Positions 7,405-33,016 are shown, numbered from the stretch's first letter. The stretch is 64,000 nt of DNA from Candidatus Firestonebacteria bacterium RIFOXYD2_FULL_39_29 (GCA_001778375.1 MFGV01000084.1:858-64857), one strand, 5' to 3'. Notes: generated from the letters alone by a model not told the origin. Numbers and translations are program-made.

Positions 7405-7422
7405 ATTAAAATCCTCCTATTT

Positions 7423-8804: not shown

Positions 8805-8828
8805 GCAAAAGCTCCTGTACTGCCATGA

Positions 8829-8972
8829 AATTACTAATGACTATTGACTAATGACAATTTAATGAATACGGCAAAGTACCGCCGTAGCATTTAATAAAAC
8901 AATATATTTATGTAGGCGGAAAGCTTTTTTCCGCCATCCTAAAATAGTCACTAGTCATTAGTACTTAGTCAT
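8829..8972. repeat. Inverted-arm intergenic element, TAGTC-heptamer family, copy 2
   Basis: Arms are AATTACTAATGACTATTGACTAATGACAATTT and AATAGTCACTAGTCATTAGTACTTAGTCATT. The interior carries hairpins ACGGC-N8-GCCGT and GGCGG-N11-CCGCC. Confidence 0.85.
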
Positions 8973-8973
8973 T

Positions 8974-10017
8974 CTATTTATTACTCACTCCTGCACTTTC
9001 AAACGTTGCCATTTCATTCAGGATCTTCACCGCCGCTTCAATAATACTCATAGAAAGCGCCGCGCCGGTACCTTCTCCGAGCCGGAGCTCAAGGTTTAAT
9101 ATCGGCTTAAGCTTTAAATGCTCCAGAGCAAATTTATGTCCGTTTTCTACGGAATTATGAGAGGCAATTATATATTCACCGGCTTTCGGTTCTATACCCA
9201 CTGCGATAAGTGCGGCCGCTGTTGAAATAAAGCCGTCAATCACCACCGGTACTTTTCTCATGGCTCCGCCGAGTATCACTCCTGCAAGCCCGCCTATTTC
9301 AAATCCCCCGACCTTAGAAAGAACATCTATCGCATCCCTACGGTCCGGCTTATTAACCGCTATTCCCTTTTCGATCAGCGCTATCTTATTTGCCAAACCT
9401 TTATCATCAATTCCTGTTCCCCGGCCTGTCACTTCTTTCACTGCTTTCCCCGTATATATGGAAGTAATCGCCGCGCTAGGGGAGGTATTTCCAATTCCCA
9501 TATCCCCAGTACCGATAATATCCAATTCTTTCTCTATAAAGACAACATCAATACCTGCTTCTATACTTTTAAGAGCGTCTTCCCTAGTCATCGCAGGACC
9601 TGACGTAAAACTTTTTGTTCCCATACCGATTTTCTTATCAACCAACCCTTTTATTCCTTTAAAATCATAATTAACACCCATATCTACAATGATAACCTTC
9701 GCTCCAACATGCCTGGCAATAACATTTATTCCCGCCCCGCCGTTTAAAAAGTTAAGCACCATTTGCGGGGTTACTTCCATAGGATAGGCTGACACTCCTT
9801 CCCTCGCAATCCCATGATCTCCTGCCATAGTAAATATAACTTTATTATTTAATACCGGATTCTTCTTTCCGCTTATAGCTACAACTGTTTTCGCAATCTC
9901 CTCAAGCCGCCCCAGACTACTGAGAGGTTTTGTAAGAAAATCCAACCGTTTTTGCGTAGCTGACAGCAGGTTCTTGTCTGTACCGGATATCTTTAGTTCA
10001 TGTTTACCTATTTTCAT
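8974..10017 (-). CDS. cobT: Nicotinate-nucleotide--dimethylbenzimidazole phosphoribosyltransferase
   Basis: 347 aa with DMGIGNTSPSAAI and GEGTGA motifs typical of CobT. Confidence 0.9.
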   Translation of the reverse strand: MKIGKHELKISGTDKNLLSATQKRLDFLTKPLSSLGRLEEIAKTVVAISGKKNPVLNNKVIFTMAGDHGIAREGVSAYPMEVTPQMVLNFLNGGAGINVIARHVGAKVIIVDMGVNYDFKGIKGLVDKKIGMGTKSFTSGPAMTREDALKSIEAGIDVVFIEKELDIIGTGDMGIGNTSPSAAITSIYTGKAVKEVTGRGTGIDDKGLANKIALIEKGIAVNKPDRRDAIDVLSKVGGFEIGGLAGVILGGAMRKVPVVIDGFISTAAALIAVGIEPKAGEYIIASHNSVENGHKFALEHLKLKPILNLELRLGEGTGAALSMSIIEAAVKILNEMATFESAGVSNK

Positions 10018-10034
10018 TTATACTCCTTTAAAAT

Positions 10035-10152
10035 AATTACAAAGTACGAATTACAAACTACAATATATGGTGTTATATACATATTTATTAAATATTGCGG
10101 GAGCTTTTCCCGCATTCATAAAATTGTCAATTGTCATTCGTCAATCGTAATT
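10035..10152. repeat. Intergenic element with heptamer arms and a conserved core hairpin
   Basis: Left arm is AATTACA AAGTACG AATTACA AACTACA. Core is TAAATATTGCGGGAGCTTTTCCCGCATTCATAAAAT. Right arm is TGTCAAT TGTCATT CGTCAAT CGTAATT. Confidence 0.85.
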
Positions 10153-10157
10153 TTTTT

Positions 10158-10691
10158 TTAGTACTCTATTCCTTTCCTTGCCGACACCCCTTTATCATAC
10201 GGGTGCTTTATTGCTTTCATTTCTGTTACCATATCGGCGGTTTTTATTATTATTTTTGAGGCATTTCTTCCGGTCAAAACCAGTTCCGTTGTTTTTGATT
10301 TGTTTTTTATTAAATTCAACAGCTCTTTTTCGCTTATTAATCCTCCAAAAACACAATTACTTATTTCATCCAGGATAACCAGATCGTATTTCCCGTTCTG
10401 ACTTGCATCTATTGCTGCATCGAACAGAAGTTCCGCATTCATTTTAAGTTCTGTCAAAGAAATATTTTTATCGAACATCGGATGCGTTTGGTCATTTCTG
10501 AATATTTTAACATTCTTAAATTTCTTAGAAAGCACAAGCTCTCCGGTTTTATTTCCGTTTGCTTTTAAGAATTGAAAGATTGCGATCTTAAAACCATTCC
10601 CGGCCGCCCTAAGCGCCAGACCGAAAGCCGCAGTGGTTTTTCCTTTCCCTTCCCCAGTATATATTTGAACCAGCCCCTTTTTTAATTTCAT
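10158..10691 (-). CDS. cobO: Cob(I)yrinic acid a,c-diamide / cob(I)alamin adenosyltransferase (CobA/CobO/BtuR type)
   Basis: IYTGEGKGKTTAAFGLALRAAG P-loop, 177 aa, 4-nt overlap with the upstream ATPase gene. Confidence 0.85.
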   Translation of the reverse strand: MKLKKGLVQIYTGEGKGKTTAAFGLALRAAGNGFKIAIFQFLKANGNKTGELVLSKKFKNVKIFRNDQTHPMFDKNISLTELKMNAELLFDAAIDASQNGKYDLVILDEISNCVFGGLISEKELLNLIKNKSKTTELVLTGRNASKIIIKTADMVTEMKAIKHPYDKGVSARKGIEY

Positions 10692-11440
10692 AGCAACACA
10701 TTCCCCTTTATCAGATTTACGTTAACGCCATAGACATCTTTTATTATTTTTCTCGTAACTACTTTTTTTGCCGTTCCTTCCGTATAGATCCTCCCCTTTT
10801 TTAAAAGTACCAGCTTTTTGCAGTATTTCGAAGCAAGATTAATATCATGAGAAATCATAATTACCGTTATTTTTACATTTTCATTCAACTTTTTTACAAG
10901 TTCAAGAATATCATACTGATGATTGATATCCAGATGACTTGTCGGTTCATCCAGTAAAAGGACTTTCGGCATTTGCGCTAAGGCGCGGGCAATAAAAACC
11001 CTCTGCCTTTCCCCGCTGCTTAATTCATCAATGTTCCTGTCTTTAAAGCGTGAAATATCCGCAAGCTTCATCGCGGAATTAACAATATCAACATCCTCTT
11101 TCCCTTCCCAGGAAAACCTTTTAATGTACGGAGAGCGCCCCATCATCACAATTTCAAATACCGTAAACGGAAATATAATTGTTTCATCCTGCGGGACCAT
11201 AGCAATATTTTTGGCAACAAACCCGGTATCCAGTTTAAATATATCCTGACCTTTGAAAAACACATTCCCTGCTCCGGGTTTTAACCCTCTGCAAAGCATT
11301 TTAAGAAGTGTTGTTTTACCCGAACCGTTAGGCCCTATTATCCCGATAAAATCAGCTTCTTCAACAGAGAGATTGATATTATTCAACACCTGCTTTTCCC
11401 CGTAGCCGAACGTTATGTTTTTTGCTTCAAGTATTTTCAC
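10688..11440 (-). CDS. btuD: ABC transporter ATP-binding protein (BtuD/FepC-like)
   Basis: Walker A GPNGSGKTT, signature LSSGERQRV, Walker B LLLDEP. Start re-set to a GTG overlapping the btuC TGA (GTGA). The longer track ORF would overlap btuC by 100 nt. Confidence 0.85.
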   Translation of the reverse strand: MKILEAKNITFGYGEKQVLNNINLSVEEADFIGIIGPNGSGKTTLLKMLCRGLKPGAGNVFFKGQDIFKLDTGFVAKNIAMVPQDETIIFPFTVFEIVMMGRSPYIKRFSWEGKEDVDIVNSAMKLADISRFKDRNIDELSSGERQRVFIARALAQMPKVLLLDEPTSHLDINHQYDILELVKKLNENVKITVIMISHDINLASKYCKKLVLLKKGRIYTEGTAKKVVTRKIIKDVYGVNVNLIKGNVLL

Positions 11441-12459
11441 TTTTTCCTCTTTAAAAGATACAAAAATAACGGACCGCCTAAGATCGCGGTAACCACTCCT
11501 GTAGGTATTTCTGACGGTGCTATTACGCTCCTGCAAAGCGTATCCGAGAGAATTAAAAATATTCCACCGAGGAGTGCAGAGACCGGTATAAGAATACGGT
11601 GATCCGGCCCGACGATCATCCTTGCTATATGAGGAATTATCAGACCTACAAAACCAATCAGGCCGCTTACGGATACGGCAAGAGCCGTGAGCATAGAAGT
11701 CAGAACAAAGAGCATTTTTTTTACTTTTTCGGTTTTTACTCCAAGAAAAACCGCAGTTTCTTCTCCAACAGCAATAATATTCAGATCATTGCTGAACATG
11801 TAGATGACAAACATTAAAAGCAAGGCGACCGGGGTAATATAAGGAAGCAGATCATAGTTCGTATTATTTAAAGTACCCATCATCCAAACCACCACTTCTG
11901 CAAGTCCTTTATTTGAAACTGTGATAATAAGCATTATAAGAGCAGAAAAAGAAAAGTTAATAATAACCCCTGAAAGAAGTAATGTGTGTAAAGAGATCTT
12001 CCCTTTATTCCGGGCCAGACCATACACTAAGAACATTGATAAAAGCGCACCTGCAAACGCGGCAAAAGGGACTACAGGAACTCCAAAGAAGAAAAACGGC
12101 AAACTTGAAAGTATTATAATAGCAGCTCCAAGCGCCGCACCGCTTGAAACCCCTAGAAGATAAGGATCCGCAAGCGGATTTTTAAGAAGACCCTGAAATA
12201 CCGCGCCTGAGACCGAAAGTGAAGCACCGACTAAAAGAGCCAGCAAAACCCTGGGTATCCTGACTTTAAAAAGTATATCAGAGATAGTTTCATCCCAGGT
12301 AACAGGAATATACCCGCTGACTGCCGGTATTTTAGAAAGCATTATCTTAATTGCCGCACCCGGCTCAATAAAAACACCGCCTATAAATATCCCAAGGAAA
12401 ACACTCGAAATTAAAAGTATTATTCCAAGCAGTATGTAAGTTTTAAATCTATTTTTCAT
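11437..12459 (-). CDS. btuC: FecCD-family ABC permease (BtuC-like)
   Basis: About 340 aa with 9-10 TM helices and the typical FecCD C-terminus (GVVTAILGGPLFLYLL). Start set at ATG 12459; the track start is a GTG lying inside a dispersed repeat. Confidence 0.85.
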   Translation of the reverse strand: MKNRFKTYILLGIILLISSVFLGIFIGGVFIEPGAAIKIMLSKIPAVSGYIPVTWDETISDILFKVRIPRVLLALLVGASLSVSGAVFQGLLKNPLADPYLLGVSSGAALGAAIIILSSLPFFFFGVPVVPFAAFAGALLSMFLVYGLARNKGKISLHTLLLSGVIINFSFSALIMLIITVSNKGLAEVVVWMMGTLNNTNYDLLPYITPVALLLMFVIYMFSNDLNIIAVGEETAVFLGVKTEKVKKMLFVLTSMLTALAVSVSGLIGFVGLIIPHIARMIVGPDHRILIPVSALLGGIFLILSDTLCRSVIAPSEIPTGVVTAILGGPLFLYLLKRKK

Positions 12460-12474
12460 TTTACCTTTTGAAAA

Positions 12475-12520
12475 CGATTCCACTTCCGCCAGTTATATAG
12501 GGCGGATCTCTCGAAGAGAT
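12475..12520 (+). repeat. CCGCC-hairpin dispersed repeat, copy R1 (variant 5' end)
   Basis: CGATTCCACTTCCGCCAGTTATATAGGGCGGATCTCTCGAAGAGAT, near-identical to 22609-22654. Confidence 0.8.
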
Positions 12521-12535
12521 TGCAACTACAAATCA

Positions 12536-13366
12536 TCAAATATATTGCTCCAATAGTTTTTTTGTTATCTCTCGTGTTTTCTGCACTTCTCTCCGTCTTT
12601 GTTTTTCCGTTATTGCGATATCCTTCATGTGCGGTTTAAGTTCAAGTGTGGCCACGCAGCCTTTCGCAAGCTTCTTTGAATCTTTCAATATTTTAAAAAC
12701 CTCAGCATAATCCATATTTCCTCTCCCTAAAGGGAGGTGCGAATCTTCTTCGCCGTTGTTGTCATGGACATGCAGCTCGACAACGGAAAGCGGCAGCGAG
12801 TTGATATACTCGGAAATATTTTCTTTATCAATAAGTCCTTTTTTTACCGCAATATTCATATGCCCGAGGTCTAAAAGAATCCCGAGCCGCTTTGACTTTA
12901 TCGCTTTACTTATTTTTTGAAAATCAGAGATCTTTGAATTAACTGTCCAGTTTTCAATACCTACTTTAACTCTTGAGATATTCTTTAGAGTAAATTTGAG
13001 CGCCTTTATCGTATTATTCGCATTATAAACCACATCATGCCTTTCCCCAACTTCATCAAAAGCAGGGTCAAAACAGATATTTAAAACATGTTTTTCCATT
13101 TTGTTTCTTTTTATAAAACCTTTAATGTTATCCAGTCTGGTTTTCAGATCTTTTAAAAACCTTTTTTTTTTCATGGAGAAGAACGCCAGATGAAAAGTAA
13201 CAACTAATTTATTTTTCTTTATCGCCTCCGCAACGGCTTTTTCACTTGCATCTTCAAAGGAACTACCTAAAAAACTAATGGACGTAAATCCCATTCCGGC
13301 TAAATGGTCAATTGTATTAATAATGGACTTTTTTCGTATGTTCCAGATAGCGATACCAATCTTCAT
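12536..13366 (-). CDS. Xylose-isomerase-like TIM barrel / AP endonuclease 2 family protein; candidate CbiR-type cobamide-remodelling phosphodiesterase
   Basis: Fold-family motifs GILLDLGHMN and ELHVHDNNGEEDSHLPLGRGNMDY. It is the first gene after the cobalamin riboswitch. The CbiR assignment is by context and superfamily only. Confidence 0.55.
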   Translation of the reverse strand: MKIGIAIWNIRKKSIINTIDHLAGMGFTSISFLGSSFEDASEKAVAEAIKKNKLVVTFHLAFFSMKKKRFLKDLKTRLDNIKGFIKRNKMEKHVLNICFDPAFDEVGERHDVVYNANNTIKALKFTLKNISRVKVGIENWTVNSKISDFQKISKAIKSKRLGILLDLGHMNIAVKKGLIDKENISEYINSLPLSVVELHVHDNNGEEDSHLPLGRGNMDYAEVFKILKDSKKLAKGCVATLELKPHMKDIAITEKQRRREVQKTREITKKLLEQYI

Positions 13367-13396
13367 TGAGTCAATTTTCCTTTCTTAAAATAATTT

Positions 13397-13482
13397 TGTC
13401 ATTGCGAAACCTGCCTTTTGGTTGAAGCAATCTCGTTTTTTTATAGATTGCTTCGTCGTAAAAACTCCTCCTCGCAATGACA
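13397..13482. repeat. Nested palindromic element in the riboswitch-to-gene leader
   Basis: Outer arms TGTCATTGCGA (13397-13407) / TCGCAATGACA (13472-13482). Inner arms GAAGCAATCT (13424-13433) / AGATTGCTTC (13445-13454). Confidence 0.75.
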
Positions 13483-13487
13483 GAGCC

Positions 13488-13534
13488 CCAAATAAAAATG
13501 CACCTGCTTGTATTTTCACATACAAGCGAGGTGC
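13488..13534 (-). terminator. Intrinsic terminator, likely the riboswitch expression platform
   Basis: The minus strand reads GCACCTCGCTTGTATGTGAAAATACAAGCAGGTGC followed by ATTTTTATTTGG. Confidence 0.65.
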
Positions 13535-13589
13535 ACCCGTTCTAACTTGGCCCGCTAATTAAAAAACCGTTTATCCTTTGTTCCTCGAA

Positions 13590-13760
13590 GGAGACGGTGA
13601 TTCATTTTACGGTAAGGTTTTCTGGCTCGAAGGTCCAACCTACTCTTCCGCCTTCCCGTCCGCCGGAGGCGAGACAGTGGCTCTGGAATTTCGTTCCTTC
13701 TTACAGCACCGGGAGTGCGCCGGATTCACACCGGCTTCCCTACACCGCAAAACAACTACG
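13590..13760 (-). promoter_or_regulatory. Cobalamin (AdoCbl-type) riboswitch aptamer
   Basis: The minus strand reads GGGAAGCCGGTGTGAATCCGGCGCACTCCCGGTGCTGTAAG..GCCACTG..GGGAAGGCGG..GAGCCAGAAAACCTTACC. This matches the conserved GGGAA-GGTG-AA-CC, GCTGTAA, GCCACTG, GGGAAGGC and B12-box blocks. Confidence 0.9.
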
Positions 13761-13765
13761 CTTGT

Positions 13766-13794
13766 ATTCTAGCCAACATAATATTTTTTGTCAA
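13766..13794 (-). promoter_or_regulatory. Sigma-70-type promoter for the riboswitch operon
   Basis: Minus strand TTGACA (13794-13789), 17-nt spacer, TAGAAT (13771-13766), just upstream of the aptamer. Confidence 0.6.
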
Positions 13795-13833
13795 TACAAT
13801 TTTATAATTTTATAAATAAAGCAAGCGCAAACT

Positions 13834-13918
13834 GTAGTTGCCTGATTTATCAGGCGCTCGATTAATCGAGCAACTACAATATATATTGTTACTATAAATA
13901 TTTTCGGCTTTTGGCACA
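13834..13918 (+). repeat. GTAGTTGC three-stem element, copy 1
   Basis: GTAGTTGC [CCTGATTTATCAGG] CG [CTCGATTAATCGAG] CAACTAC, then AATAT...CTTTTGGCACA. The homolog is at 45731-45841. Confidence 0.75.
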
Positions 13919-13947
13919 TCCACATAAGCCTGAGGGATGTTCATATT

Positions 13948-14709
13948 TTATAGAACCATCAATACAATAGTTCCCATTATAAGCAAATATATGGAAAAAT
14001 AATGGAGTTTTTGTTTTTGGATGATATTTACGAGGAGCTTTGTGCAGAAGAAGCCGGTTATCGCGGCAACTAAAAGGCCTGTCAGGTAGACGGATATATC
14101 AATATTGACCATATCTGCTTTTGTTAGATGCCTTGTTTCTATTACTGCGGCTCCCAAAACAGCAGGAATGGAAAGGAGAAAGGAGAACTCAGCCGCAAAC
14201 TTCCTGTCAAGCTTTGCAAATAGACCTGCTGATATAGTGGAACCGGATCTGGAAATTCCCGGGATTATCGCGATACCCTGGATAAGCCCGACAAATAAAG
14301 CATTAAGCCAGGTCATTTCTTTTTCTGTTTTATTGCCGGTTTTTACCCTTCCTGCAAATAATAATATTATTGCAGTGCCAATAAGCGCCGCTCCGACTAG
14401 TTTTACATCGGTGAACATTTTTTCAAAAACATCTTTAAATGCAACACCTATGACACCGGTTACCGCTGTGGCAGTAAGGACCAGCATCAGCAGTTTTATA
14501 TTTTTAAATATCTCAACTATCCGTTTTCTAAAATATATCACAACCGCAAGGGCCGTACCCAGGTGAAGCGTCACATCAAACAGTATTCCCGGCTGGGAGA
14601 AGTTCTTAAATAAACTTTGTATCACAACAAGATGCCCCGAGGAGCTCACAGGGAGAAACTCTGTGAGACCCTGAACTATTCCGAGAATGATGGATTCAAG
14701 CAGTGTCAT
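13948..14709 (-). CDS. uppP: Undecaprenyl-diphosphate phosphatase
   Basis: GIVQGLTEFLPVSSSGHL and PGISRSGSTI motifs, 253 aa polytopic. Confidence 0.9.
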   Translation of the reverse strand: MTLLESIILGIVQGLTEFLPVSSSGHLVVIQSLFKNFSQPGILFDVTLHLGTALAVVIYFRKRIVEIFKNIKLLMLVLTATAVTGVIGVAFKDVFEKMFTDVKLVGAALIGTAIILLFAGRVKTGNKTEKEMTWLNALFVGLIQGIAIIPGISRSGSTISAGLFAKLDRKFAAEFSFLLSIPAVLGAAVIETRHLTKADMVNIDISVYLTGLLVAAITGFFCTKLLVNIIQKQKLHYFSIYLLIMGTIVLMVL

Positions 14710-14722
14710 ATTAACTCCAATA

Positions 14723-14925
14723 ACTAAGATTTAAGCACTAAATTCTAAACAATCACTAAGACTTAAATTCTAATCACTAAACTAAACCGTTGTAAGATAT
14801 TTATTTTTTTGTTGACAATATGTTTCAATGATTTTGTTTATCTCGCTATGGAAACGAATGTTTTCATCTATATATATTTCTAATCGAGAAAAGCTCTGCT
14901 TAAAATTTAGTGCTTAAATCTTAGT
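14723..14925. repeat. MITE-like element with perfect 21-bp terminal inverted repeats (TAAGCAC-heptamer family)
   Basis: ACTAAGATTTAAGCACTAAAT (14723-14743) is the exact reverse complement of ATTTAGTGCTTAAATCTTAGT (14905-14925). The element fills the gltX-uppP spacer. Confidence 0.85.
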
Positions 14926-14936
14926 AATTCACAATC

Positions 14937-16373
14937 TTAAAATATTTTAAGATTGGCCTCCATTCTCTTAATGCATTCTGCTGAGCCCAGGGCGGGGAGG
15001 ACATTTGCAAGCTCTTCACCGTGTTCTGCGCCGGTAATGGCGATACGGATGGGCATAAACAGGTCTTTGCCTTTTACTCCTGCTTTTTTTCCGGCTTCGG
15101 CAATGAGCGCTTTACAGTTTTCCTTGGTTATCTCCGTTGCTTTCAAAACTTCAATGAAGGCATTAATAGTCGCAGCGGCATTATTTATTCCGCTCCAAAC
15201 GTTTACGGCAACCTGATCAACGGCTTTTGCTTCAGTAAAAACGGAAGCAAGCTCGGGGATCATATTAAAGGATTTAACACCCGTCTTTATTTTAAGGAGA
15301 ACATCTTTCTTCCACTCTTCGCTCTTCTCGATCTTTGCAAGATACGGGAGAGCATGTTTCAGGTAAACTTCTTCCGGCAGTTTCATAATATATTCGTGGT
15401 TCATCCAGACAAGTTTCTTCTCGTCAAAAATAGAACCGGAATGTCCGACATCTTTAATATCAAAACTCTTAAATATCTCTTCTTTTGTTTTTATCTCCAC
15501 GCCGTCTTTCGGATACCAACCAAGAAGGGACATGTAGTTAAACATTGCTTCAGGCAAAAATCCTTTGTCGCGGTAAGCAAGAAGAGATGTTTCCCCGTGC
15601 CTTTTTGAAAGCTTGCTCCTGTCAGCGCCGAGGATCATGGAAAGATGCGCAAACTCCGGCAACGGAAATCCAAAAGCCTCATAGAGCAATACCTGGCGGG
15701 GTGTATTTGAAAGATGGTCTTCACCTCTGATAACATGCGTGATTTTCATAAGATTATCATCAATAACGACAGCAAAGTTATATATAGGTACTCCGTCCGA
15801 ACGGGCAATAACAAAATCCCCTATCTCTTTCGTGTTAAACTCCACAGGCCCTCTTACCAGGTCATCAAACTTTACGATAACATTTTCAGCTACTTTAAAC
15901 CTTACAACAAACCTTTCTTTCTTCGCAAGTTTTGCCTGTATTTCCTGTTCTGAAAGTTTTGTACATTTCCCGCTGTATTTATAAGGCATACCCGCCTTAA
16001 CGGACTTTTGTCTCTCAACTTCCACTTCTTCAGGAGAACAGAAGCAATAATAAGCCTTTTTCTCCTTTAAAAGCTTGTCTAAATACTCATTATATATAGA
16101 AAGCCGCTTCATCTGGGTATACGGCCCAAACTCCCCTTTTTCGTTATCAATTCCAAAATATCCTTCATCCCAATCCAACCCCAGCCACTTGAGCGACTCG
16201 ACTATGACTTTCACCGCTTCAGGCGTAGACCTCTCCTGATCAGTATCCTCTATCCTGAGAATAAACACCCCTTCGGTCTTTTTAGCAAAAAGATAATTAA
16301 AAAGCGCCGTCCTGGCATTCCCTATATGCATGTACCCCGTCGGAGACGGAGCAAAACGTACTCTGTTTGTCAT
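14937..16373 (-). CDS. gltX: Glutamyl-tRNA synthetase
   Basis: RFAPSPTGYMHIGNARTALFNY (HIGH) and KLSKRHG (KMSKS) motifs, 478 aa. Confidence 0.95.
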   Translation of the reverse strand: MTNRVRFAPSPTGYMHIGNARTALFNYLFAKKTEGVFILRIEDTDQERSTPEAVKVIVESLKWLGLDWDEGYFGIDNEKGEFGPYTQMKRLSIYNEYLDKLLKEKKAYYCFCSPEEVEVERQKSVKAGMPYKYSGKCTKLSEQEIQAKLAKKERFVVRFKVAENVIVKFDDLVRGPVEFNTKEIGDFVIARSDGVPIYNFAVVIDDNLMKITHVIRGEDHLSNTPRQVLLYEAFGFPLPEFAHLSMILGADRSKLSKRHGETSLLAYRDKGFLPEAMFNYMSLLGWYPKDGVEIKTKEEIFKSFDIKDVGHSGSIFDEKKLVWMNHEYIMKLPEEVYLKHALPYLAKIEKSEEWKKDVLLKIKTGVKSFNMIPELASVFTEAKAVDQVAVNVWSGINNAAATINAFIEVLKATEITKENCKALIAEAGKKAGVKGKDLFMPIRIAITGAEHGEELANVLPALGSAECIKRMEANLKIF

Positions 16374-16377
16374 TGGT

Positions 16378-16812
16378 TTATCCTTTTAAAATCTTCTTTA
16401 GTTTCTTCTTTATATCTTCAACTTGTTTCTCCGTCAGCTTTCCTTTTCTTACTTTTTCCGGAATCTGCCAAATGGGGAGTTTTTTGTATTTATCATTCTT
16501 ATATCTCGGTATTACGTGCCAGTGGATATGATGCGTGATGTTGCCGAGGTTCTCATAGTTAAACCTTTCAGGTTTGAAGGCTTTGTCTATTGCAGCCGTC
16601 ACCCGCATCATATCTTCGTACAAACATTTTTGAACCTTCATCGGGAGTTTATGTGTATGTTCTTTGTGACTTTTTGTAAAGAGAATACAATATCCTTTAA
16701 AATACTGCCCTTCTGCCAAAATTACGTAGGACTCTTTTAATTCTGCAATTATCGGACAGGGTACTTTCTTCTTATATTTTACGATAGCTTTGCAAAAAAA
16801 GCATTTCTTCAT
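16378..16812 (-). CDS. HIT-family nucleotide hydrolase/transferase
   Basis: Histidine triad HHIHWHVIPR, 144 aa, 4-nt overlap with ispF. Confidence 0.8.
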   Translation of the reverse strand: MKKCFFCKAIVKYKKKVPCPIIAELKESYVILAEGQYFKGYCILFTKSHKEHTHKLPMKVQKCLYEDMMRVTAAIDKAFKPERFNYENLGNITHHIHWHVIPRYKNDKYKKLPIWQIPEKVRKGKLTEKQVEDIKKKLKKILKG

Positions 16813-17309
16813 TTCTTAAACATCCATTTTCTTTTTCTGGTTAGATTTACTATTGCGTGGGCTTGCATCGCTTTTTGGGTGCCGATATCTCCGAGCCCTT
16901 TGGCAGTGGTGGCTTTTATAGAGACTTGTTCCGGTTCAATAGAAAGCATTTTAGCTATATTTTCTTTCATTTCCCCAATGTACTGGGAAAGCTTTGGCTG
17001 CTCTGTCATTATTACAGTATCAATATTTATAATTTTATAATCTTTTTTTAATTTGTTTCCGACATGCTGTAATAGAATCAAACTGGAAGCGTCTTTATTT
17101 TCCGGCCGGTCCACGCCGAATATGAGACCAATATCACCTTCATCCGCCGCGCCAAGCAAAGCATCAATTATTGCGTGACATAAAATATCCGCATCGGAAT
17201 GCCCGTCCAGTCCGAGATGAAACGGAATATGCACTCCGCCGAGAATAAGATTTCTACCGTGTTTTAGTTTGTGAATATCAATGCCAAGACCTACGAGATT
17301 TGTGGACAT
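16809..17309 (-). CDS. ispF: 2-C-methyl-D-erythritol 2,4-cyclodiphosphate synthase
   Basis: GIDIHKL..GHSDADILCHAIIDALLGA motifs, 166 aa. Confidence 0.95.
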   Translation of the reverse strand: MSTNLVGLGIDIHKLKHGRNLILGGVHIPFHLGLDGHSDADILCHAIIDALLGAADEGDIGLIFGVDRPENKDASSLILLQHVGNKLKKDYKIINIDTVIMTEQPKLSQYIGEMKENIAKMLSIEPEQVSIKATTAKGLGDIGTQKAMQAHAIVNLTRKRKWMFKK

Positions 17310-17323
17310 AATAACTCCTTATA

Positions 17324-17453
17324 AATAATGACTATTGACTATTTATTGTTGGCGGAGAGAAAACTTCCGCCTTCATAATATTGATATTTTTAAAATATTG
17401 CGGCGGCACTTTGCCGCATTCATTAAATAGTCATTAGTCACTAGTCATTAGTA
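17324..17453. repeat. Inverted-arm intergenic element, TAGTC-heptamer family, copy 3
   Basis: Arms AATAATGACTATTGACTATTTATT / TAAATAGTCATTAGTCACTAGTCATTAGTAC. Interior has GGCGG-N11-CCGCC and GCGGCGGCACTTTGCCGC, in the opposite order to copy 2. Confidence 0.85.
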
Positions 17454-17458
17454 CTTTC

Positions 17459-18145
17459 TTAGAAATAGCCCCTTAAAAGCAGCAGTATTATTTCCCCGTT
17501 AAATCCCGCAATTACCGGGACTAAAAGATTATCATCCAGCTTTTTCACTGCCGTTTCTACAACCGTGGCGGTGACTGCCATGACAGCAATAATAAGCCAC
17601 ATAGGGTCTCCCGCGGGAAGCCACCAACAAGTGTCCCACCACATTCTCCCGTTAACCGGCAGACGTAGAACCATAAAACCTATCAAAAAATCAACGGCTA
17701 ATTCCGCTAAAAATCCTTCCCATGCTTTTCCTTTTATATAAGGAAGGGGAGTCTTTCCAAATTTGGTCCCTACTAACGCAGCTGTCAAGTCTCCAAAAGT
17801 GACCATAAGAATACCGGCTGCAGCAATACGAAGATCAAAAATAGCCAGGGAAATAATAGACCCGAGCAAAAAGTATATTTCCGCGCCCATATGATGTTTT
17901 TCTTTGTCTCTTCTGTACTCCCAGAGTTTTCTAAGGAACGGAATTTTTGCGCCCACCTCTACTCTTGCATACTCAAGCTCGAAAAGAATTATCAACATGA
18001 AGGAAAGAAAGAGCAGGGCAACTTTATGATTGACCTCTTTTGAGACAAGGACATAGGCAATGAGGAAAATTACCGAAAAAAGGTGGATGGACTTTCTTAT
18101 TACTTCCTTCTTAAAACTCCATTTTTTTTCTTTTTTCATGACCAA
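17459..18145 (-). CDS. Polytopic membrane protein, CTP-transferase-1 family (dolichol/phytol-kinase or CdsA-like)
   Basis: 228 aa with 6-7 TM helices, RKSIHL near the N-terminus and GDLTAALVGTKFGK. Family-level call only. Confidence 0.5.
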   Translation of the reverse strand: MVMKKEKKWSFKKEVIRKSIHLFSVIFLIAYVLVSKEVNHKVALLFLSFMLIILFELEYARVEVGAKIPFLRKLWEYRRDKEKHHMGAEIYFLLGSIISLAIFDLRIAAAGILMVTFGDLTAALVGTKFGKTPLPYIKGKAWEGFLAELAVDFLIGFMVLRLPVNGRMWWDTCWWLPAGDPMWLIIAVMAVTATVVETAVKKLDDNLLVPVIAGFNGEIILLLLRGYF

Positions 18146-19033
18146 TCAGGCAACACTTACCGCATTTCTGCCGGCATGTTTAGACTTATACAGCGCTTTA
18201 TCCGCTTTTACAATAAGGCCCCTGCCGTCAATAATGGATTTATCCCAGCCGGCCACGCCGATAGAGAGCGTAACCCTGATGATCTGTCCCTGATAATGGA
18301 ACTTAGTCTGCGCAACAAACTGCCTCAGGCGGTCTCCCAGCCTCTTTGCGCTTTCAACATCGGAAATGGGGGCTATTATGGAAAACTCATCCCCGCCGTA
18401 ACGTCCGATAACATTGATCTTTCTTGTGTTTTTCCTGATAAGTTCAGAAACTTTTACCAGGATATAATCCCCTGCATCGTGGCCGAAAGTATCGTTAATT
18501 TTTTTAAAGTGATCCACGTCCACCATTAAAAGCGCAAGAAGTCCGCTGTACTTTTTAACTCTTTCCACTTCACGGTCCAGGAAGGTTTTAAAATACTTTT
18601 GCGTAAAAACATGAGTAAGCCCGTCTCTGGAAACTTCCAGCTTAAGCTGCTGTGTTTTTAACTGGGCTTCCGCCAGGTCTTTTTGTACTTCCCTTATTAT
18701 ATCTCCATAAGTAATAATGCCGACCAGCCGTTTATTTTCTATTATCGGAAGGCGCCTTATCCGCTTTGCCGCCATAAACTGCATCGCATCGCGGGTTTCC
18801 ATCTTGGGAGACATGGTAAAAACAGGCGCAATCATTATATCCGCCGCTTTTTTTTGCCCAAGCAAATTACACCCGTACTGGCCGATGAAACTCACGATAT
18901 CTCTTTCCGTGATGATCCCGAGCACCGTTTTATCTTTAACAATAACAACGGAGCCGATCTTATTCTTTTCCATAAGACGGCAGATCTCTTGTATTGATAT
19001 ATTTACCGGCGCAGTAATAACCGACCGGGACAT
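18146..19033 (-). CDS. CBS-pair + GGDEF diguanylate cyclase
   Basis: Two CBS-like modules then RYGGDEFSII and a KALYKSKHAGRN tail. Start set at MSRSVITAP (ATG 19033). Confidence 0.85.
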   Translation of the reverse strand: MSRSVITAPVNISIQEICRLMEKNKIGSVVIVKDKTVLGIITERDIVSFIGQYGCNLLGQKKAADIMIAPVFTMSPKMETRDAMQFMAAKRIRRLPIIENKRLVGIITYGDIIREVQKDLAEAQLKTQQLKLEVSRDGLTHVFTQKYFKTFLDREVERVKKYSGLLALLMVDVDHFKKINDTFGHDAGDYILVKVSELIRKNTRKINVIGRYGGDEFSIIAPISDVESAKRLGDRLRQFVAQTKFHYQGQIIRVTLSIGVAGWDKSIIDGRGLIVKADKALYKSKHAGRNAVSVA

Positions 19034-19127
19034 GATGTTAAGTATTTTCAAATTAACCCTCACAAAATAATAATTTATCCGTCCGCTGTAAGCGAGACGA
19101 GATCTCTCCAAAACTTTATTTTGGAGG

Positions 19128-19195
19128 ACAGTGTACAGTTTACAGTTTAAATATATTACGTGAGCAACGTGATAACGTGTAACGTTCTAACGTAT
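19128..19195. repeat. Heptamer arrays (GTACAGT x2; ACGTGAN block)
   Basis: CAGTGTACAGTTTACAGTTT..ACGTGAGCAACGTGATAACGTGTAACGTTCTAACG. Bases 19157-19190 match the reverse complement of 32861-32894 at 32/34 positions. Confidence 0.85.
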
Positions 19196-19196
19196 T

Positions 19197-21813: not shown

Positions 21814-21905
21814 TTTAACACTCCGTGTAGTTAGTTCATAAAGTTTATAAGGTTTTTAAAGTTTGTAAAGTTATTTTTAAAGGTAGCATTATATACTTTT
21901 TTACT

Positions 21906-22010
21906 CTCTGAGCCTCAGCTTCTTCGGCCTTTTGTCATCCGGCTTCTGGCCTCAGTCCTCAATTCTCTTTCGCTCTTACCGAGCCTCTGCGCATCTGAGC
22001 ATCCGCGCCT
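21906..22010. repeat. GC-rich heptamer array abutting the GNAT stop codon
   Basis: CTGAGCC TCAGCTT CTTCGGC CTTTTGT CATCCGG CTTCTGG CCTCAGT CCTCAAT ... GAGCCTC TGCGCAT CTGAGCA TCCGCGC CTCT. Related words occur at 53761-53795. Confidence 0.7.
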
Positions 22011-22608: not shown

Positions 22609-22654
22609 CGATTCCGCTTCCGCCAATGATATAGGGCGGATCTTTCGAAGAGAC
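22609..22654 (+). repeat. CCGCC-hairpin dispersed repeat, copy R2
   Basis: CGATTCCGCTTCCGCCAATGATATAGGGCGGATCTTTCGAAGAGAC. Confidence 0.8.
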
Positions 22655-22858: not shown

Positions 22859-22883
22859 TCTTTTTGATCTACAATCTTACAAT

Positions 22884-22948
22884 CTGTGTCATCTCTTTTA
22901 AATCTCTTCTAAAGATCCGCCCTATATTATTGGCGGATGTGTCATCAG
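22884..22948 (-). repeat. CCGCC-hairpin dispersed repeat, full-length copy R3
   Basis: The reverse complement reads CTGATGACACATCCGCCAATAATATAGGGCGGATCTTTAGAAGAGATTTAAAAGAGATGACACAG. It ends 8 nt from the dnaK stop. Confidence 0.85.
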
Positions 22949-22955
22949 AAGAAGT

Positions 22956-24839: not shown

Positions 24840-24905
24840 ATTTTTATCCGCCTCTAGAACTTTAGGGCAAGCTTTGAATTAAAACTTGCCCCAAGCCTAA
24901 TTATT

Positions 24906-26573
<1,668 letters not shown>

Positions 26574-26612
26574 TCAATTTTGACTTATTTTTGTTATTTT
26601 GTTTTTCTCTTT

Positions 26613-26650
26613 CAGATTTCTTCGAATTTCGAGTTTAGAATTTCGAATTT
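26613..26650. repeat. Heptamer array in the groES-groEL spacer
   Basis: CAGATTT..CGAATTT CGAGTTT AGAATTT CGAATTT (26623-26650 in perfect phase). Confidence 0.8.
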
Positions 26651-26659
26651 GCACTTCTG

Positions 26660-26950
26660 TTATTTTTCGATTATTGCGAGAACATCTTCTTCTCTCATAA
26701 TGAGATGCTTGTCCCCGTCAATGGTGATTTCGTTGCCTGCGTATTTCGCAAACATTACAGTATCACCTTTTTTCACGGAAAGAGGTTTCTTCGTTCCGTT
26801 TTCCAGAATCTTACCGGCTCCGACTGCTATTACTTTTCCTTCTTCCGGTTTTTCCTTCGCTGAATCAGGGATTATTATCCCGCCTTTCTTTGTCTCTCCG
26901 CCTTCAAGCGGCTTTACCAAAATCCTGTCTTCCAATGGCTTTATATTCAT
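26660..26950 (-). CDS. groS: Co-chaperonin GroES
   Basis: [14 protein letters not shown]...[11 protein letters not shown]. Start at ATG 26950 with GGAGG upstream. Confidence 0.95.
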
Positions 26951-27043
26951 ACTACCTTGCACCTCCTATAGAATTTATGCCCTTTTAAAGGCATTTTTTT
27001 GTATTTTTCAGAGATTTTACAACTAGCTACACCCCTAATATAA

Positions 27044-27058
27044 GCAATTTTCGTGCCA
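27044..27058 (-). promoter_or_regulatory. Sigma-54 (-24/-12) promoter upstream of groES
   Basis: The minus strand reads TTGGCACGAAAATTGCTTA, an exact match to TGGCACG-N4-TTGCW with canonical GG-to-GC spacing. It lies about 95 nt upstream of the groES ATG. Confidence 0.65.
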
Positions 27059-27464
27059 ACCTTTAATAACAAACAAAAAAGCATTGAAATACCTTGATTT
27101 TTATGAGTTATTACCTTTTAGAAGGAAGTTATCAACACCTTTATCAACAGCTAAAAATGTTTCATATTGGTACATGCGCAGAGGATAAGGGAAATACAGT
27201 AAATCAATGTGTCCCATAATAGAGCATGTCAATTAGCGGTGACTGTCACCCCAAATACTTTGTTATATAAAGGCATTTGAGTGTGTCAGCTGTGAATTGG
27301 TAACCAGTCATCTAAAAAATTATAATTGTATTACACCTTACTCGGTTGTATAATTATATTTATGAAACCAATTAAATTTTTCCTGATTCTGGTTTTTCTT
27401 TCTTTTTCTTCTTCCCTCTTTTCCGGGTTTTCTATGGATTGAGTGGAGACGACTGTTTTGCACC

Positions 27465-28172
27465 AAAAGGGACAGTCCCTAAGGGACTGTCCCTTTTATG
27501 GACAGGTACTTACTTTTTTCTCATTATATTTAGTTCATTGTTATATTCTGTTCTTGTCAAATACTCCTTCCATTGTCTTTTAGAAATTTCCGTATATTTA
27601 AAGAAGTCATCAGATATTATTATATTATTTTCCTGTTTTAAATGTCCCCTGGCGCTTGACCATTTCCAATCATCAGATTTTTTGACTAACCCGGCTCTAA
27701 CAGGATTTCGCTCAACATATCTAACTGCAATTGCAAGATGTTTACTGTCTAATGATTTAGAAAAATATCTATCGCCCCAGACATGCCCGCTCTTCCCATA
27801 CTTTCTATTAAAATAAAAGCCATATGTGCCATTGACACCTCGAAACGACATAGAAAGTGATCTGTCATTTCTTGGAATAACTATAAGATGCACGTGATTT
27901 TTCATCAAACAATAAGCAAGGATGCTCATCTCATATCTTAACGCCATATCTTTAAGCAACTCAAGATAATATTCCCTATCATTATTATCATTAAATATTG
28001 TTTGTTTGCAGTTACCCCTTTGACAGATATGATACGGCATATTAACATCGACTAAACGTGCTGTTCTTGGCATAGTTTTCACCCCTTAAGTGAATTTTAA
28101 GAATAATAACATTTATTTTCATAGTTGTCAACTGCAGAAAAAAGGGACAGTCCCTAAGGGACTGTCCCTTTC
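27465..28172 (-). mobile_element. RAYT gene bracketed by two identical palindromic REP copies
   Basis: The 32-nt AAAAGGGACAGTCCCTAAGGGACTGTCCCTTT occurs at 27465-27496 and 28140-28171 (AGGGAC-A-GTCCCT A AGGGAC-T-GTCCCT). Confidence 0.85.
27510..28073 (-). CDS. REP-associated tyrosine transposase (IS200/IS605 Y1 transposase-like)
   Basis: MPRTARL..YHICQRG.., HUH motif NHVHLIV, C-terminal RYVERNPVRAGLV..WKWSS. ATG 28073 has AAGGGG 7 nt upstream. Confidence 0.85.
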   Translation of the reverse strand: MPRTARLVDVNMPYHICQRGNCKQTIFNDNNDREYYLELLKDMALRYEMSILAYCLMKNHVHLIVIPRNDRSLSMSFRGVNGTYGFYFNRKYGKSGHVWGDRYFSKSLDSKHLAIAVRYVERNPVRAGLVKKSDDWKWSSARGHLKQENNIIISDDFFKYTEISKRQWKEYLTRTEYNNELNIMRKK

Positions 28173-28173
28173 T

Positions 28174-29245: not shown

Positions 29246-29321
29246 AATTACTCCAATCATTTAAATATTATCTTTGTAATACCTCTTTATTTTGACACTT
29301 AAAAAGGATAATCGCAACTGT

Positions 29322-30944: not shown

Positions 30945-30972
30945 TTCCTATCCACCCCTCTGCTTTGATTTA

Positions 30973-31674
30973 TTACTCTTTTGGAATAGAATATTCCGTT
31001 TCCAGTACATTTATTATCTCTTTTAAATCTTCCGGGAACGGGGCACGTAGGTGCAGGGACCTGTGGGTTTTCCAGTACATGAACATCGCATCGGAGGAGT
31101 GCAGGGTCAGGCGCTCTGAAACGAGCGGGGCTCTTCCTTTTCTCGGTAAACTCAGGGCTTTTCTGTCACCGTAAACGTGGTCATACGCTAAAGGCCTGCC
31201 TATAGATGCCATGTGAATCCTTATCTGATGGGTACGGCCTGTTTTTGGCTCCACCTCTAAAAGTGTATATCCTTTAAATCTTTTTCTTATACGATAAAAG
31301 GTCAGGGACTTTTTCCCGGTACTTGAGATCTTTACTTTGCCTGAAGAACCCTTAAGAATAGGGAGAGTTACCTGACCTTCTTTCATAACTTCCCCTTTTA
31401 CAAGAGCAAGATAAAGTTTCCGCATTTTCAGATCCATTATTATCTCTGTCATCTTTGACTGCGCTTCGCGGGTTTTTGCAATTATCAAAACACCGCTCGT
31501 GTCTTTATCTATTCTGTGCACCGGAAAGACCTGCGCGCCTGCAAGATGCTCCATCGCCGCATCAATCGCCGATTTTTCTTTCGGATGCTTGTTGTCCCTG
31601 ATTGATAAAAGCCCCGACGGTTTATTAAAAACCAGCAGGTTATTATCTTCAAATATTATCTCCGGTATATTCAC
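30973..31674 (-). CDS. RluA-family pseudouridine synthase
   Basis: HRIDKDTSGVLIIAKT catalytic Asp motif and GRTHQIRIH, 233 aa. Confidence 0.9.
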   Translation of the reverse strand: MNIPEIIFEDNNLLVFNKPSGLLSIRDNKHPKEKSAIDAAMEHLAGAQVFPVHRIDKDTSGVLIIAKTREAQSKMTEIIMDLKMRKLYLALVKGEVMKEGQVTLPILKGSSGKVKISSTGKKSLTFYRIRKRFKGYTLLEVEPKTGRTHQIRIHMASIGRPLAYDHVYGDRKALSLPRKGRAPLVSERLTLHSSDAMFMYWKTHRSLHLRAPFPEDLKEIINVLETEYSIPKE

Positions 31675-32831
31675 TTGAATCCTTTTGGAGCTTTTTTGAT
31701 TTTTAACATCTTTCCGCCGCTTCTTATAGAATCCGTAGCCGTGCAGCCCACAGCCACGCTCATTCTTCCGGCAAGCGCCGTGGAAACGGGCTTTTTGCCT
31801 TTCAAAAGATAATCCAGAAAATCCTCCACGATTATGGAATCAGCGCCGAAATGATTACCTTTTCCTGTTTTTACTTTATATTTTATTTCTTTAACCTTGT
31901 CCATAAACCTGTAATTCTGTCTAAGCTTTACGATAACTGTATCCCCGTCGTTTAAATTCTCGATCCTGCCTTTTGTACCGATCAAGGTGTAATTTCTAAA
32001 ATACTCCGGGGCAAAATGGCATTGCAGATACGTAGCCTTGATCCCGTTTTCCAGCTCCATTATAACCTCACTGTTATCCTCGACATCCACTTCTTTCCGG
32101 AAACAACACTTGTTTATCCTGGAATAATCCGCTTCCAGGCAGGTTTTTCTGATCTTGCAATCCGGGCACCGGAGGTTGTTGGACTTGTTACCGCCGAAAA
32201 AATCCAGAGAACCAAAAGCGGAAACTTTCTTCGCGTACGAACCGGTCAGATAATGTATCATATCAATATCATGCGAGCCCTTCTGAAGGAGCAGAGAATA
32301 AGTATTTTTTCTTGTACCATGCCAGTCATGAAAATAGAAATGACCCCCAAAGCCCACAAAATGCCTTACCCAGGCTGCCTTAATATCTCCGATCTTTCCT
32401 GAGTCTATTATTTTCTTCATAAGTTTAAAGAGAGCCATGTGGCGCATGTTAAACCCAACCATTAACTTTACTCCGGAAGCTTTCCATGCTTTTAAAACCC
32501 GGTCGCATCCTTCAGTAGTGATCGCCATCGGTTTTTCCAGATAAACATGTTTTTTTGCCTTAAGCGCCGCTATAGTATACTCTTCATGCGTAAAATCAGG
32601 GGAAGTAATGACAATAGCGTCTATATCTTTTCTTTTAAGAAGCTCTTTGTAATTGGTTGTAATAAAAACATCCGGCCCCATTATCTTCTTAAATTCTTCC
32701 AGTGCCTTTAAACTGATATCCGCCCCACCGGCAACAACAGCCCTCTTTTTCGGCTGGTGGAACCACCTTCGAAGATCCTCCCCTCGCCCGGTGACGCCGA
32801 TTATTCCTATGCGAAGTATTTTATTGCTCAT
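31671..32831 (-). CDS. Gfo/Idh/MocA-family NAD(P) oxidoreductase
   Basis: Rossmann N-terminus LRIGIIGVTGRG, EKPMA motif, 386 aa. Confidence 0.85.
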   Translation of the reverse strand: MSNKILRIGIIGVTGRGEDLRRWFHQPKKRAVVAGGADISLKALEEFKKIMGPDVFITTNYKELLKRKDIDAIVITSPDFTHEEYTIAALKAKKHVYLEKPMAITTEGCDRVLKAWKASGVKLMVGFNMRHMALFKLMKKIIDSGKIGDIKAAWVRHFVGFGGHFYFHDWHGTRKNTYSLLLQKGSHDIDMIHYLTGSYAKKVSAFGSLDFFGGNKSNNLRCPDCKIRKTCLEADYSRINKCCFRKEVDVEDNSEVIMELENGIKATYLQCHFAPEYFRNYTLIGTKGRIENLNDGDTVIVKLRQNYRFMDKVKEIKYKVKTGKGNHFGADSIIVEDFLDYLLKGKKPVSTALAGRMSVAVGCTATDSIRSGGKMLKIKKAPKGFK

Positions 32832-32860
32832 AATCTTCTCCTTGTTGTTGTTTGAAAACC

Positions 32861-33016
32861 GTTAGAACGTTCCACGTTATCACGTTACTCACGTTCCAAA
32901 TTAATGTGTTATTATTAAATTAAAAACTTTTATTCTTAATATTTCTAAATTAATATTGCGGAGTGTTTTATTCCGCTTCATTAAATTGTCAATTGTAAAT
33001 CGTAATTCGTAAATTT
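32861..33016. repeat. Intergenic element: ACGTTNC heptamer arm, conserved core hairpin, CGTAAT heptamer arm
   Basis: GTTAGAACGTTCCACGTTATCACGTTACTCACGTTCC ... TTAATATTGCGGAGTGTTTTATTCCGCTTCATTAAATTGTCAATTGTAAATCGTAATTCGTAAAT. Confidence 0.85.

Follow-up and report, generated by a model that had tools for sequence, protein, structure and literature searches.

The four intergenic sites at which a short GC-rich hairpin motif recurs in a stretch of 64,000 nucleotides from Candidatus Firestonebacteria bacterium RIFOXYD2_FULL_39_29 (GCA_001778375.1, MFGV01000084.1:858-64857; the whole stretch is called the window below) are members of a lineage-specific family of intergenic repeats with a modular build in this Firestonebacteria genome. 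The stem of the hairpin changes in a compensatory manner, and modules have been gained and lost between close species. We give about an even chance to the reading that these are intergenic repeats of the REP/BIME kind (repetitive extragenic palindromes/bacterial interspersed mosaic elements), whose hairpin serves, once transcribed, as a leaky terminator or as a barrier to decay from the 3' end. To our knowledge, work on small structured repeats between genes has dealt almost exclusively with Proteobacteria, Firmicutes and cyanobacteria, and the Firestonebacteria are, as far as we know, a candidate phylum without a cultured member.

Architecture of the repeat unit

One unit consists, from 5' to 3', of tandem heptamers (TGACWAW)n and close variants thereof, the junction ATTTAATGAA, a hairpin of 20 nt and a tail R-W-A-T-T-T-W-A. 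The hairpin has a 6-bp stem N-GCGG-N and about 8 loop bases, mostly A (in 29 of 41 units the modelled pairs enclose 8 nt; 54% A), and folds at -8 to -12 kcal/mol (z -2.1 to -3.9). The flank of the unit is 14 nt long, GACWATTTAATGAA; this 5' flank ends in ..AATGAA, with G12, A13 and A14 nearly invariant. Tail positions 4-6 are enriched in T, at least 5 T are present in an 8-nt stretch in 19 of the 41 units, and units A and B of the window (see Table 1 for the units) were flagged as terminator-like. The heptamer side always points toward the nearest gene, the boundary of which is 1-60 nt away in most units.

Thirteen of the 31 canonical units are accompanied by a second, inverted unit in head-to-head arrangement, the hairpin starts being mostly 46-49 nt apart. 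The heptamer arms of such pairs are inverted repeats able to pair with each other, and the paired spacers are predicted to form a long stem bearing two hairpins (whole-spacer z -4.3 to -7.2).

The first-pass annotation of the window, made from the sequence alone, had reported four copies of the motif at 10090-10129 (A), 17392-17433 (B), 32950-32991 (C) and, inverted, 8852-8895 (D). All four are present there with the hairpins and stems given for them (Table 1). The reversal of copy D is real as well, and it follows from the occurrence of units as head-to-head pairs, of which D is the second half. Two partner hairpins in the spacers of D and B (8915-8935 and 17351-17371) had gone unrecorded. 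The AATATT flank described as conserved is found in copies A, B and C, whereas D has GC at that place; the conserved 3' flank holds overall, except that copy C lacks the W base between the stem and TTCAT. This 3' flank is the junction into the heptamer array, and the WGTCA noted at its end is the first unit of the array; what had been reported as the motif forms the inner portion of a larger module. The 3' consensus CCGCWTTCATWAAATWGTCA (a 20-mer) has 4 matches at up to 3 mismatches vs. 0.05 expected from shuffles, and the 15-mer TTCATWAAATWGTCA matches exactly at 4 sites, and at 10 sites if up to 2 mismatches are allowed, vs. 1.6 expected.

All four copies are located in intergenic spacers within a long run of minus-strand housekeeping genes (gene calls are simple open reading frames, ORFs): A between cobO and cobT, D between cobT and cobU, B upstream of ispF, and C between two genes of a sugar-metabolism type. 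On the transcribed (minus) strand, A, B and C show the order stop codon, tandem heptamers, TTTAATGAA, hairpin, ATATTT; D shows the same order on the opposite strand.

Compensatory changes in the stem

In the alignment of 41 distinct units, 91% of the stem cells are paired, compared to 77% in shuffles, and the covariation score of 0.336 (0.097 in shuffles) was reached by none of 500 shuffles. Sliding the partners by 1-3 columns lowers the pairing to 35-52%. The changes are concentrated at the ends of the stem. Pair 1 is GC in 17 units, CG in 5, UA in 5 and AU in 4; pair 6 is AU in 13, GC in 10, CG in 8 and GU in 3. The inner four pairs, GCGG/CCGC, hardly change: AU takes the place of the usual pair twice at pair 2 and twice at pair 5. 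The constancy of GCGG is partly due to ascertainment, because CGG was in the search pattern; units found by the covariance model only keep GCGG too. Compensation can also be followed at a single locus: among the spacer B orthologs of three species, hairpin 2 is GGCGGA/TCCGCC in two and GGCGGG/CCCGCC in the third (L032; loci are referred to by such numbers), and the outer pair of hairpin 1 is T-A, then C·A, then C-G.

The first-pass annotation had proposed selection on a folded structure and had named two outcomes that would speak against it, stem changes without compensation in a larger alignment and confinement of the motif to four sites. Neither was found, as the stem changes remain compensatory across the 41 units and the family extends far beyond the window (see below).

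Paired changes can also arise without any selection on structure, either through template switching in quasi-palindromes or by chance among GC-rich palindromes. Palindromes can indeed self-correct by intrastrand template switching, and the four inner pairs barely vary, so that the covariation rests on two pairs. However, G:U intermediates and some mismatches persist, the loops are asymmetric (A-rich on the unit strand), and loop length, tail and junction are conserved. Furthermore, the 17:1 bias toward a position after the stop codon (see below) and the retention in orthologous spacers point to a function. We therefore regard an origin of the pairing without structural selection as extremely improbable.

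Distribution of the family

The strict search pattern, in which two heptamers and the junction were fixed but of the stem no more than CGG, was run against one genome for each of 185,579 species. It gave 10 matches, all of them in the metagenome-assembled genome (MAG) of Candidatus Firestonebacteria bacterium RIFOXYA2_FULL_40_8, which is a sister species, since it has ~83% DNA identity to the window where the two overlap. Besides, 28 metagenome contigs matched the pattern, and no viral contig did. Taken together, these matches amount to 29 distinct strict-pattern copies, none of them outside Candidatus Firestonebacteria DNA. With a covariance model based on 30 copies, 42 units were recovered at E up to 0.01 in 233 kb, and those of them that were placed all lie between ORFs. 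Note that the loci were found via the motif and the copy counts are therefore biased; orientation was not part of the search. In one metagenome, the heptamer arms have a depth of ~4,800 vs. a single-copy depth of 96, and this ratio of ~50 suggests some 50 similar arms per genome. Loose contig ends of the same metagenome carry many more hairpins with junction and GCGG. Contigs of a Rifle aquifer MAG (GCA_001780345.1) encode the CobT protein of the window.

In the search of the window with Rfam 15, only a cobalamin riboswitch and a tRNA pass the gathering score, and permissive E-values added for the spacers only far-sub-threshold, spurious matches of miRNA-precursor type. No paper turned up in the literature on repeats in the phylum Firestonebacteria. 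The density of arrays with a period of 7-9 nt (Tandem Repeats Finder) was tried as a lineage marker and discarded as non-discriminating, AT-rich relatives scoring as well.

Gain, loss and retention in related species

The orthologous cob loci of relatives were retrieved through CobT homologs. Distant relatives (~70% protein identity, GC 28-32%) have a compact cob operon without such modules. Among close relatives, the spacers vary widely. That between cobT and cobU is only 35 nt long in L046; one sense unit occupies it in L047 and L045, and the window and L027, a locus of a sister species, have a pair there. The sense hairpin after the cobT stop codon is kept in four species. Other heptamer families (AAGTACG, ACGTTAC, AAGGACA) occupy orthologous places. 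Spacer D (8805-8973) is 92% identical between the window and L027, compared to 77-81% for the flanking cobS, cobU and cobT coding sequences; the excess could result from constraint or from exchange of sequence among copies. All paralogous hairpins in the set differ from one another, and thus there is no sign of a recent burst.

A single cobalamin riboswitch (13594-13764, minus strand, 89.9 bits) heads the B12 gene string of the window (4883-13764), which comprises the btu ABC transporter, cobO, cobT, cobU, cobS, a TonB-dependent receptor and TonB. The string is interrupted here by repeat spacers of 123-169 nt, whereas in distant relatives the genes overlap or are 26-48 nt apart.

Position and orientation relative to genes

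Seventeen of the 18 single units lie on the sense strand after a stop codon and one lies otherwise (P ~1e-4, two-sided, against a 50:50 null; binomial arithmetic by hand). In pairs, the canonical half is sense in 6 cases and antisense in 7, i.e., random, as expected with one unit of each orientation per pair. The bias of the single units is the strongest argument tying the unit to the 3' end of the upstream gene, and it lends support to the weak terminator-like context that the first-pass annotation had noted. A replication-strand bias of insertion could mimic it, and the two are inseparable on contigs.

Three further features point more weakly to the RNA strand as the one that matters. For whole spacers, the sense strand folds 2-4.6 kcal/mol better than the antisense strand; among arm mismatches on the sense strand, G:U (62) outnumber A:C (35; composition-corrected P = 0.03); and the tail is enriched in T as described above.

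The G:U excess and the fold of the spacers would also suit an RNA processing site, in which the whole spacer forms a long imperfect duplex with one or two GC hairpins that is cut by a double-strand-specific RNase, the cistrons being separated thereby, as in the case of Correia or ERIC elements. Whole spacers fold far better than shuffles (z -4.3 to -7.2), strong inverted arms are present in 30 of 85 spacers (all co-directional spacers across all loci), and the consensus fold of 11 pairs has an outer stem of 18 bp. However, the arms contain 129 transversion mismatches compared to the 62 G:U. The outer-stem pairs are invariant in the 11 pairs and, because they never vary, give no evidence of covariation. 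In addition, the single units C, L007 and L010 have unrelated, non-pairing arrays on their two sides. Processing of this type thus appears quite unlikely.

Proposed function in the transcript

We favour a leaky terminator or decay barrier because the defining details of REP/BIME elements fail here and a clean intrinsic terminator does not fit either. In the transcript, the hairpin would be a 3' structure that stops some of the polymerases and/or blocks 3'-to-5' decay of the upstream mRNA, as has been reported for enterobacterial REP/BIME elements, e.g., those of E. coli. Selection for the fold would keep the stem paired, while its outer and inner pairs could drift. If the units are indeed 3'-end signals, the hairpins would help to define transcription units in genomes for which no transcriptome is available.

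Several observations weigh against this proposal. In metatranscriptome runs of the same study, no reads or contigs mapped to window positions 4800-20000. The T tract is interrupted, and 22 of the 41 units fall short of 5 T in 8 nt, whereas canonical terminators with a hairpin and a T run are present in the same genome, e.g., after dnaK. Some single units are only 14-25 nt away from the next ribosome-binding site, and three units are located inside the cob/btu string with its single riboswitch; given this closeness and this intra-operon position, these units are not efficient terminators. With a uniform geometry of 20 nt, an invariant GCGG core and a 14-nt flank that is fixed, the units look more like targets of sequence-specific recognition than like generic terminators. 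Finally, the units are dispensable, as orthologous spacers of close relatives do without them.

A more far-reaching proposal makes the hairpin unit a module of a lineage-specific 'punctuation' system for intergenic DNA. In such a system, a 3' module (heptamer array, junction, hairpin) would close one gene and a 5' module made up of a hairpin or promoter core, the junction and a complementary heptamer array would open the next; both arrays would pair with each other, either across the spacer or from one transcript to another; the fixed junction and the GCGG stem would be read by a protein dedicated to them; and the segment between the arrays would be invertible (compare the spacer 7405-7527 between species, see below), which would switch the promoter of the downstream gene. 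Taken with all five of these parts jointly, this proposal is decidedly improbable.

Mobile DNA as an alternative

Alternatively, the family may be selfish, non-autonomous mobile DNA of the REPIN or MITE (miniature inverted-repeat transposable element) type, in which recognition of the folded DNA by a single-strand transposase of the Y1/RAYT type (REP-associated tyrosine transposase) would preserve the hairpin; the position after genes would then simply be where insertions are tolerated. In line with this, the family is dispersed and includes head-to-head pairs, close species differ in whether an orthologous spacer has a unit, the compact operons of distant relatives have none, the arms and junctions of paralogous pairs hardly vary in sequence, and the window contains a RAYT-like gene with matches to PF01797 and NF047646. 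This gene, however, is flanked by a different palindrome, AAAGGGACAGTCCCTTAGGGACTGTCCCTTTT, which is almost absent elsewhere, and neither a GTAG nor a CGTC tag lies beside the stem of the units. The lack of identical paralogous hairpins argues against a recent burst, and in the one comparison of a filled and an empty site (cobT/cobU, 35 nt in L046 vs. 123-192 nt in relatives) no target-site duplication was seen by eye. Moreover, units are kept at orthologous sites between species of ~80% DNA identity, and a 17:1 sense bias would be expected only if insertion were strand-specific relative to replication. On balance, we consider mobile DNA an unlikely explanation.

The RAYT-like gene is located at 27510-28073 on the minus strand (Y1_Tnp, PF01797, E 3e-18). 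Its best NCBIfam model, NF047646 'REP-associated tyrosine transposase', scores 69.5 bits, below the cut-off of 80. The palindrome is 32 nt long and identical on both sides (27465-27496, 28140-28171); GGGACWGTCCC is found nowhere else in the window and only once in the 49 loci.

A possible site acting in DNA and the spacer 7405-7527

The units could also act as DNA, either as the site of a dimeric DNA-binding protein or as part of an invertible switch bounded by inverted heptamer arrays. Their uniform geometry and the spacing of paired hairpins (mostly 46-49 nt) would agree with this, as would the spacer 7405-7527, which has the heptamer arms without GC hairpins. Instead of these, it contains a promoter-like core, TTAAGG-N17-TATAAT (7499-7471), pointing at the gene for the TonB-dependent receptor. 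The core 7462-7504 is inverted in the orthologous locus L027 (2222-2293) of a sister species, with 94% identity over 72 nt compared to ~82% for the flanking sequence. In the window's own species, every contig has the orientation of the window. No strand-change joints indicating inversion within the population were seen at 7250-7700, 8700-10300 or in L027 on assembled contigs of four DNA runs, a comparison of low power, with a coverage of only 3-6x for the L027 species; contigs of the ~92-96x runs cross spacers A and D, and no strand-change joints are present there or at 7405. There is no invertase or recombinase gene in the window, the orientation of spacers B and D does not differ among the species compared, and a DNA site would not need the sense bias of the single units. 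We hence judge an element acting at the DNA level to be very improbable.

Other candidates were rejected. Integron attC sites do not fit, the flanking genes being syntenic housekeeping genes; no RYYYAAC/GTTRRRY core sites were seen in the arms by eye (no pattern search was made). There is no regular repeat-spacer array as in CRISPR, and the confinement of the motif to spacers speaks against DNA uptake sequences. A promoter inside the unit was considered, as arrays of the TGACAAT type contain TTGACA, but no -10-like hexamer was found at the right distance by eye. An IHF site in the centres of pairs was dismissed after no match to WATCAANNNNTTR was seen by eye in spacer B, the sole centre checked.

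Units and arrays of the window

The scan of the window with the covariance model returned the four copies, the two partners and two hairpin-less junction relatives in the spacer 7405-7527 (Table 1).

Table 1. Repeat units and heptamer arrays in the window (positions counted from its first nucleotide; bits and E values refer to the covariance model).
Feature	Position	Strand	Hairpin	Remarks
Unit A	10082..10128	-	TGCGGGA-aaagc-TCCCGCA (10114-10096); -12 kcal/mol, z -3.7	Single unit after cobO stop; 57.8 bits; minus strand reads heptamer end, ATTTTATGAA, hairpin, ATATTTAAT
Unit B	17385..17432	-	TGCGGC-aaagtgcc-GCCGCA (17418-17399)	Stop-proximal half of head-to-head pair upstream of ispF; 66.2 bits; orthologous in L008 and L032
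Partner of B	17337..17385	+	GGCGGA-gagaaaact-TCCGCC (17351-17371)	Inverted; weak match, 18.7 bits, E 0.02; heptamers AATGACT ATTGACT, junction ATTTATTGTT
Unit C	32943..32990	-	GCGGA-ataaaacac-TCCGC (32976-32958); -8.4 kcal/mol, z -3.8	Single unit after stop of 33024-34724 gene; 48.6 bits
Unit D	8853..8900	+	TACGGC-aaagtacc-GCCGTA (8867-8886)	Start-proximal antisense half of cobT/cobU head-to-head pair; 58.8 bits; identical hairpin at orthologous locus L027
Partner of D	8901..8949	-	GGCGGAAA-aaagc-TTTCCGCC (8935-8915)	Sense half after cobT stop; 32.3 bits, E 2e-5
Heptamer array, AATGACT type	8825..8859	+		Outer side of unit D; inverted counterpart 8944-8971
Heptamer array TTACGAT TGACGAA TGACAAT TGACAAT	10123..10150	-		Between cobO stop and unit A
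Heptamer array GTACTAA TGACTAG TGACTAA TGACTAT	17427..17454	-		Leads into unit B; inverted counterpart 17329-17343
Heptamer array TTACGAA TTACGAT TTACAAT TGACAAT	32985..33012	-		Leads into unit C
Hairpin-less relative	7405..7527	-		cobS/TonB-receptor spacer; same heptamer arms, TTTAAxG/CATTAAAT junctions; z -5.9

The heptamer arms of spacer D pair in the predicted fold of the spacer. Whole spacers A and B fold at -33.1 kcal/mol (z -4.5) and -46.8 kcal/mol (z -7.2), respectively. Spacer A contains a second array, of the TGTAATT type (10035-10061), before the ribosome-binding site of cobT, and on the far side of spacer C there is an unrelated ACGTTNC array (32873-32895).

An AT-rich core, ATAAYAACACATTART, with a -10-like TAATAA is located downstream of several single units and before the second heptamer array (32900-32945, 10062-10085 and 53740-53765; furthermore in L007, L033, L038 and L045 6075-6234). 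It may be the promoter of the next gene.

The spacers of the window contain further repeats. A second family (12486-12519, 22620-22653, 22903-22938, 37333-37366, 54600-54623) has the hairpin ATCCGCC-N8-GGCGGAT, and most copies carry another small palindrome, TCTYTCGAAGAGA, after it; the stem of the family mirrors the hairpin of the units, TCCGCC being the 5' arm. A third structured repeat (13834-13877, 45742-45798; L045 3599-3668, L046 5394-5462) has an outer stem GTAGTTGC/GCAACTAC around two small hairpins (CTGAT..ATCAG, CTCGAT..ATCGAG). In relatives, it fills a spacer that has the second family in the window, and the content of spacers is therefore mosaic. Most of the longer spacers (14710-14936, 19112-19196, 21814-22010, 26556-26660, 32832-32900, 40270-40479, 53682-53793, 58299-58350) carry short tandem arrays of 7-9-nt units from the families CTAAGCA/TAAATTC, ACAGTTT, ACGTGAT/ACGTTAC, AGTTTATAA and TTCGAAT, often at both ends of the spacer, beside the stop codon and the ribosome-binding site.

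Repeat spacers also break assemblies. The public scaffold L006 (2770-2940) has a run of N inside spacer A (10018-10157), and short-read unitigs of four runs end at heptamer arrays (window 7490-7537). Such breaks matter for the reconstruction of genomes of this lineage.

Comparison with known repeat systems

REP/BIME elements are extragenic stem-loops that occur after genes as singletons and as head-to-head dimers with spacers of 20-100 bp, one end of their stem bears an unpaired tag, GTAG or CGTC, and roles in termination and mRNA stabilisation have been proposed for them (PMC3733652). Like the REP/BIME elements of Enterobacteria and Pseudomonas, the Firestonebacteria units are short, GC-rich stem-loops, apparently in many copies and, as far as they were placed, in intergenic DNA, located mostly downstream of genes between co-directional or convergent ORFs, and they form head-to-head dimers whose partners may differ in stem and loop. 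With a hairpin of 20 nt and a 6-bp stem, they are short palindromes in the 20-40 nt range. On the other hand, neither GTAG nor CGTC is present in their 5' flank or 3' tail, the stem has only 6 bp and the size is fixed at 20 nt. The outward-facing tandem heptamer array and the fixed 10-nt junction are absent from REPs; paralogous units differ in the stem by compensatory change, whereas REPs share one consensus; and the RAYT-like gene of the window is bordered by its own palindrome and not by GCGG units.

With intrinsic terminators, the units share a GC-rich sense hairpin a few tens of nucleotides after the stop codon, followed by sequence enriched in T, and a pairing kept by compensation. They differ in their short, interrupted T run (A-T-T-T-W-A), in a size and flanks that are uniform across loci, whereas real terminators are idiosyncratic, and in their location inside an operon, down to 14 nt from the next ribosome-binding site. 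The canonical terminators of the same genome also look different.

The paired form, 110-150 nt long with inverted ends, resembles MITEs that fold as RNA (Correia/NEMIS of Neisseria, ERIC of Yersinia, Nezha of cyanobacteria): it is predicted to give a long hairpin when transcribed, its presence varies between related genomes, and it can carry promoter-like cores. Unlike in these MITEs, the ends appear to be heptamer arrays of variable length rather than defined terminal inverted repeats, and the content appears mosaic without a single full-length consensus, the 11 paired elements having arms and junctions in common, with varying arm length and heptamer order and unrelated centres. Neither a target-site duplication (one comparison, by eye) nor a cognate transposase was identified.

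The resemblance to invertons is restricted to the spacer 7405-7527, with its promoter-like core between inverted repeats and opposite orientations in two species. In contrast to invertons, no single population was found to contain the two orientations, there is no invertase nearby, and the hairpin units show no change of orientation between orthologs.

Intergenic heptanucleotide repeats have been proposed to play a post-transcriptional role (PMC4679880). The arrays described here are similar to such repeats (cyanobacterial short tandemly repeated repetitive sequences, STRR; TAACTGA of Beggiatoaceae, cyanobacteria and Bacteroidetes) in having 2-6 copies, in being intergenic and in standing beside start codons; a patchy phylogenetic distribution is likewise shared with STRR, TAACTGA and long simple sequence repeats. 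They differ in sequence (TGACWAW and others, not TAACTGA or CCCCAGT), in forming inverted pairs at both ends of a spacer and in being joined by a fixed junction to a GC hairpin. The family combines tandem heptamer arrays with REP-like hairpins, which are usually met separately, and its dozens of covarying stems, together with the strict position after the stop codon, make it an unusually clean natural data set on the selection of such elements.

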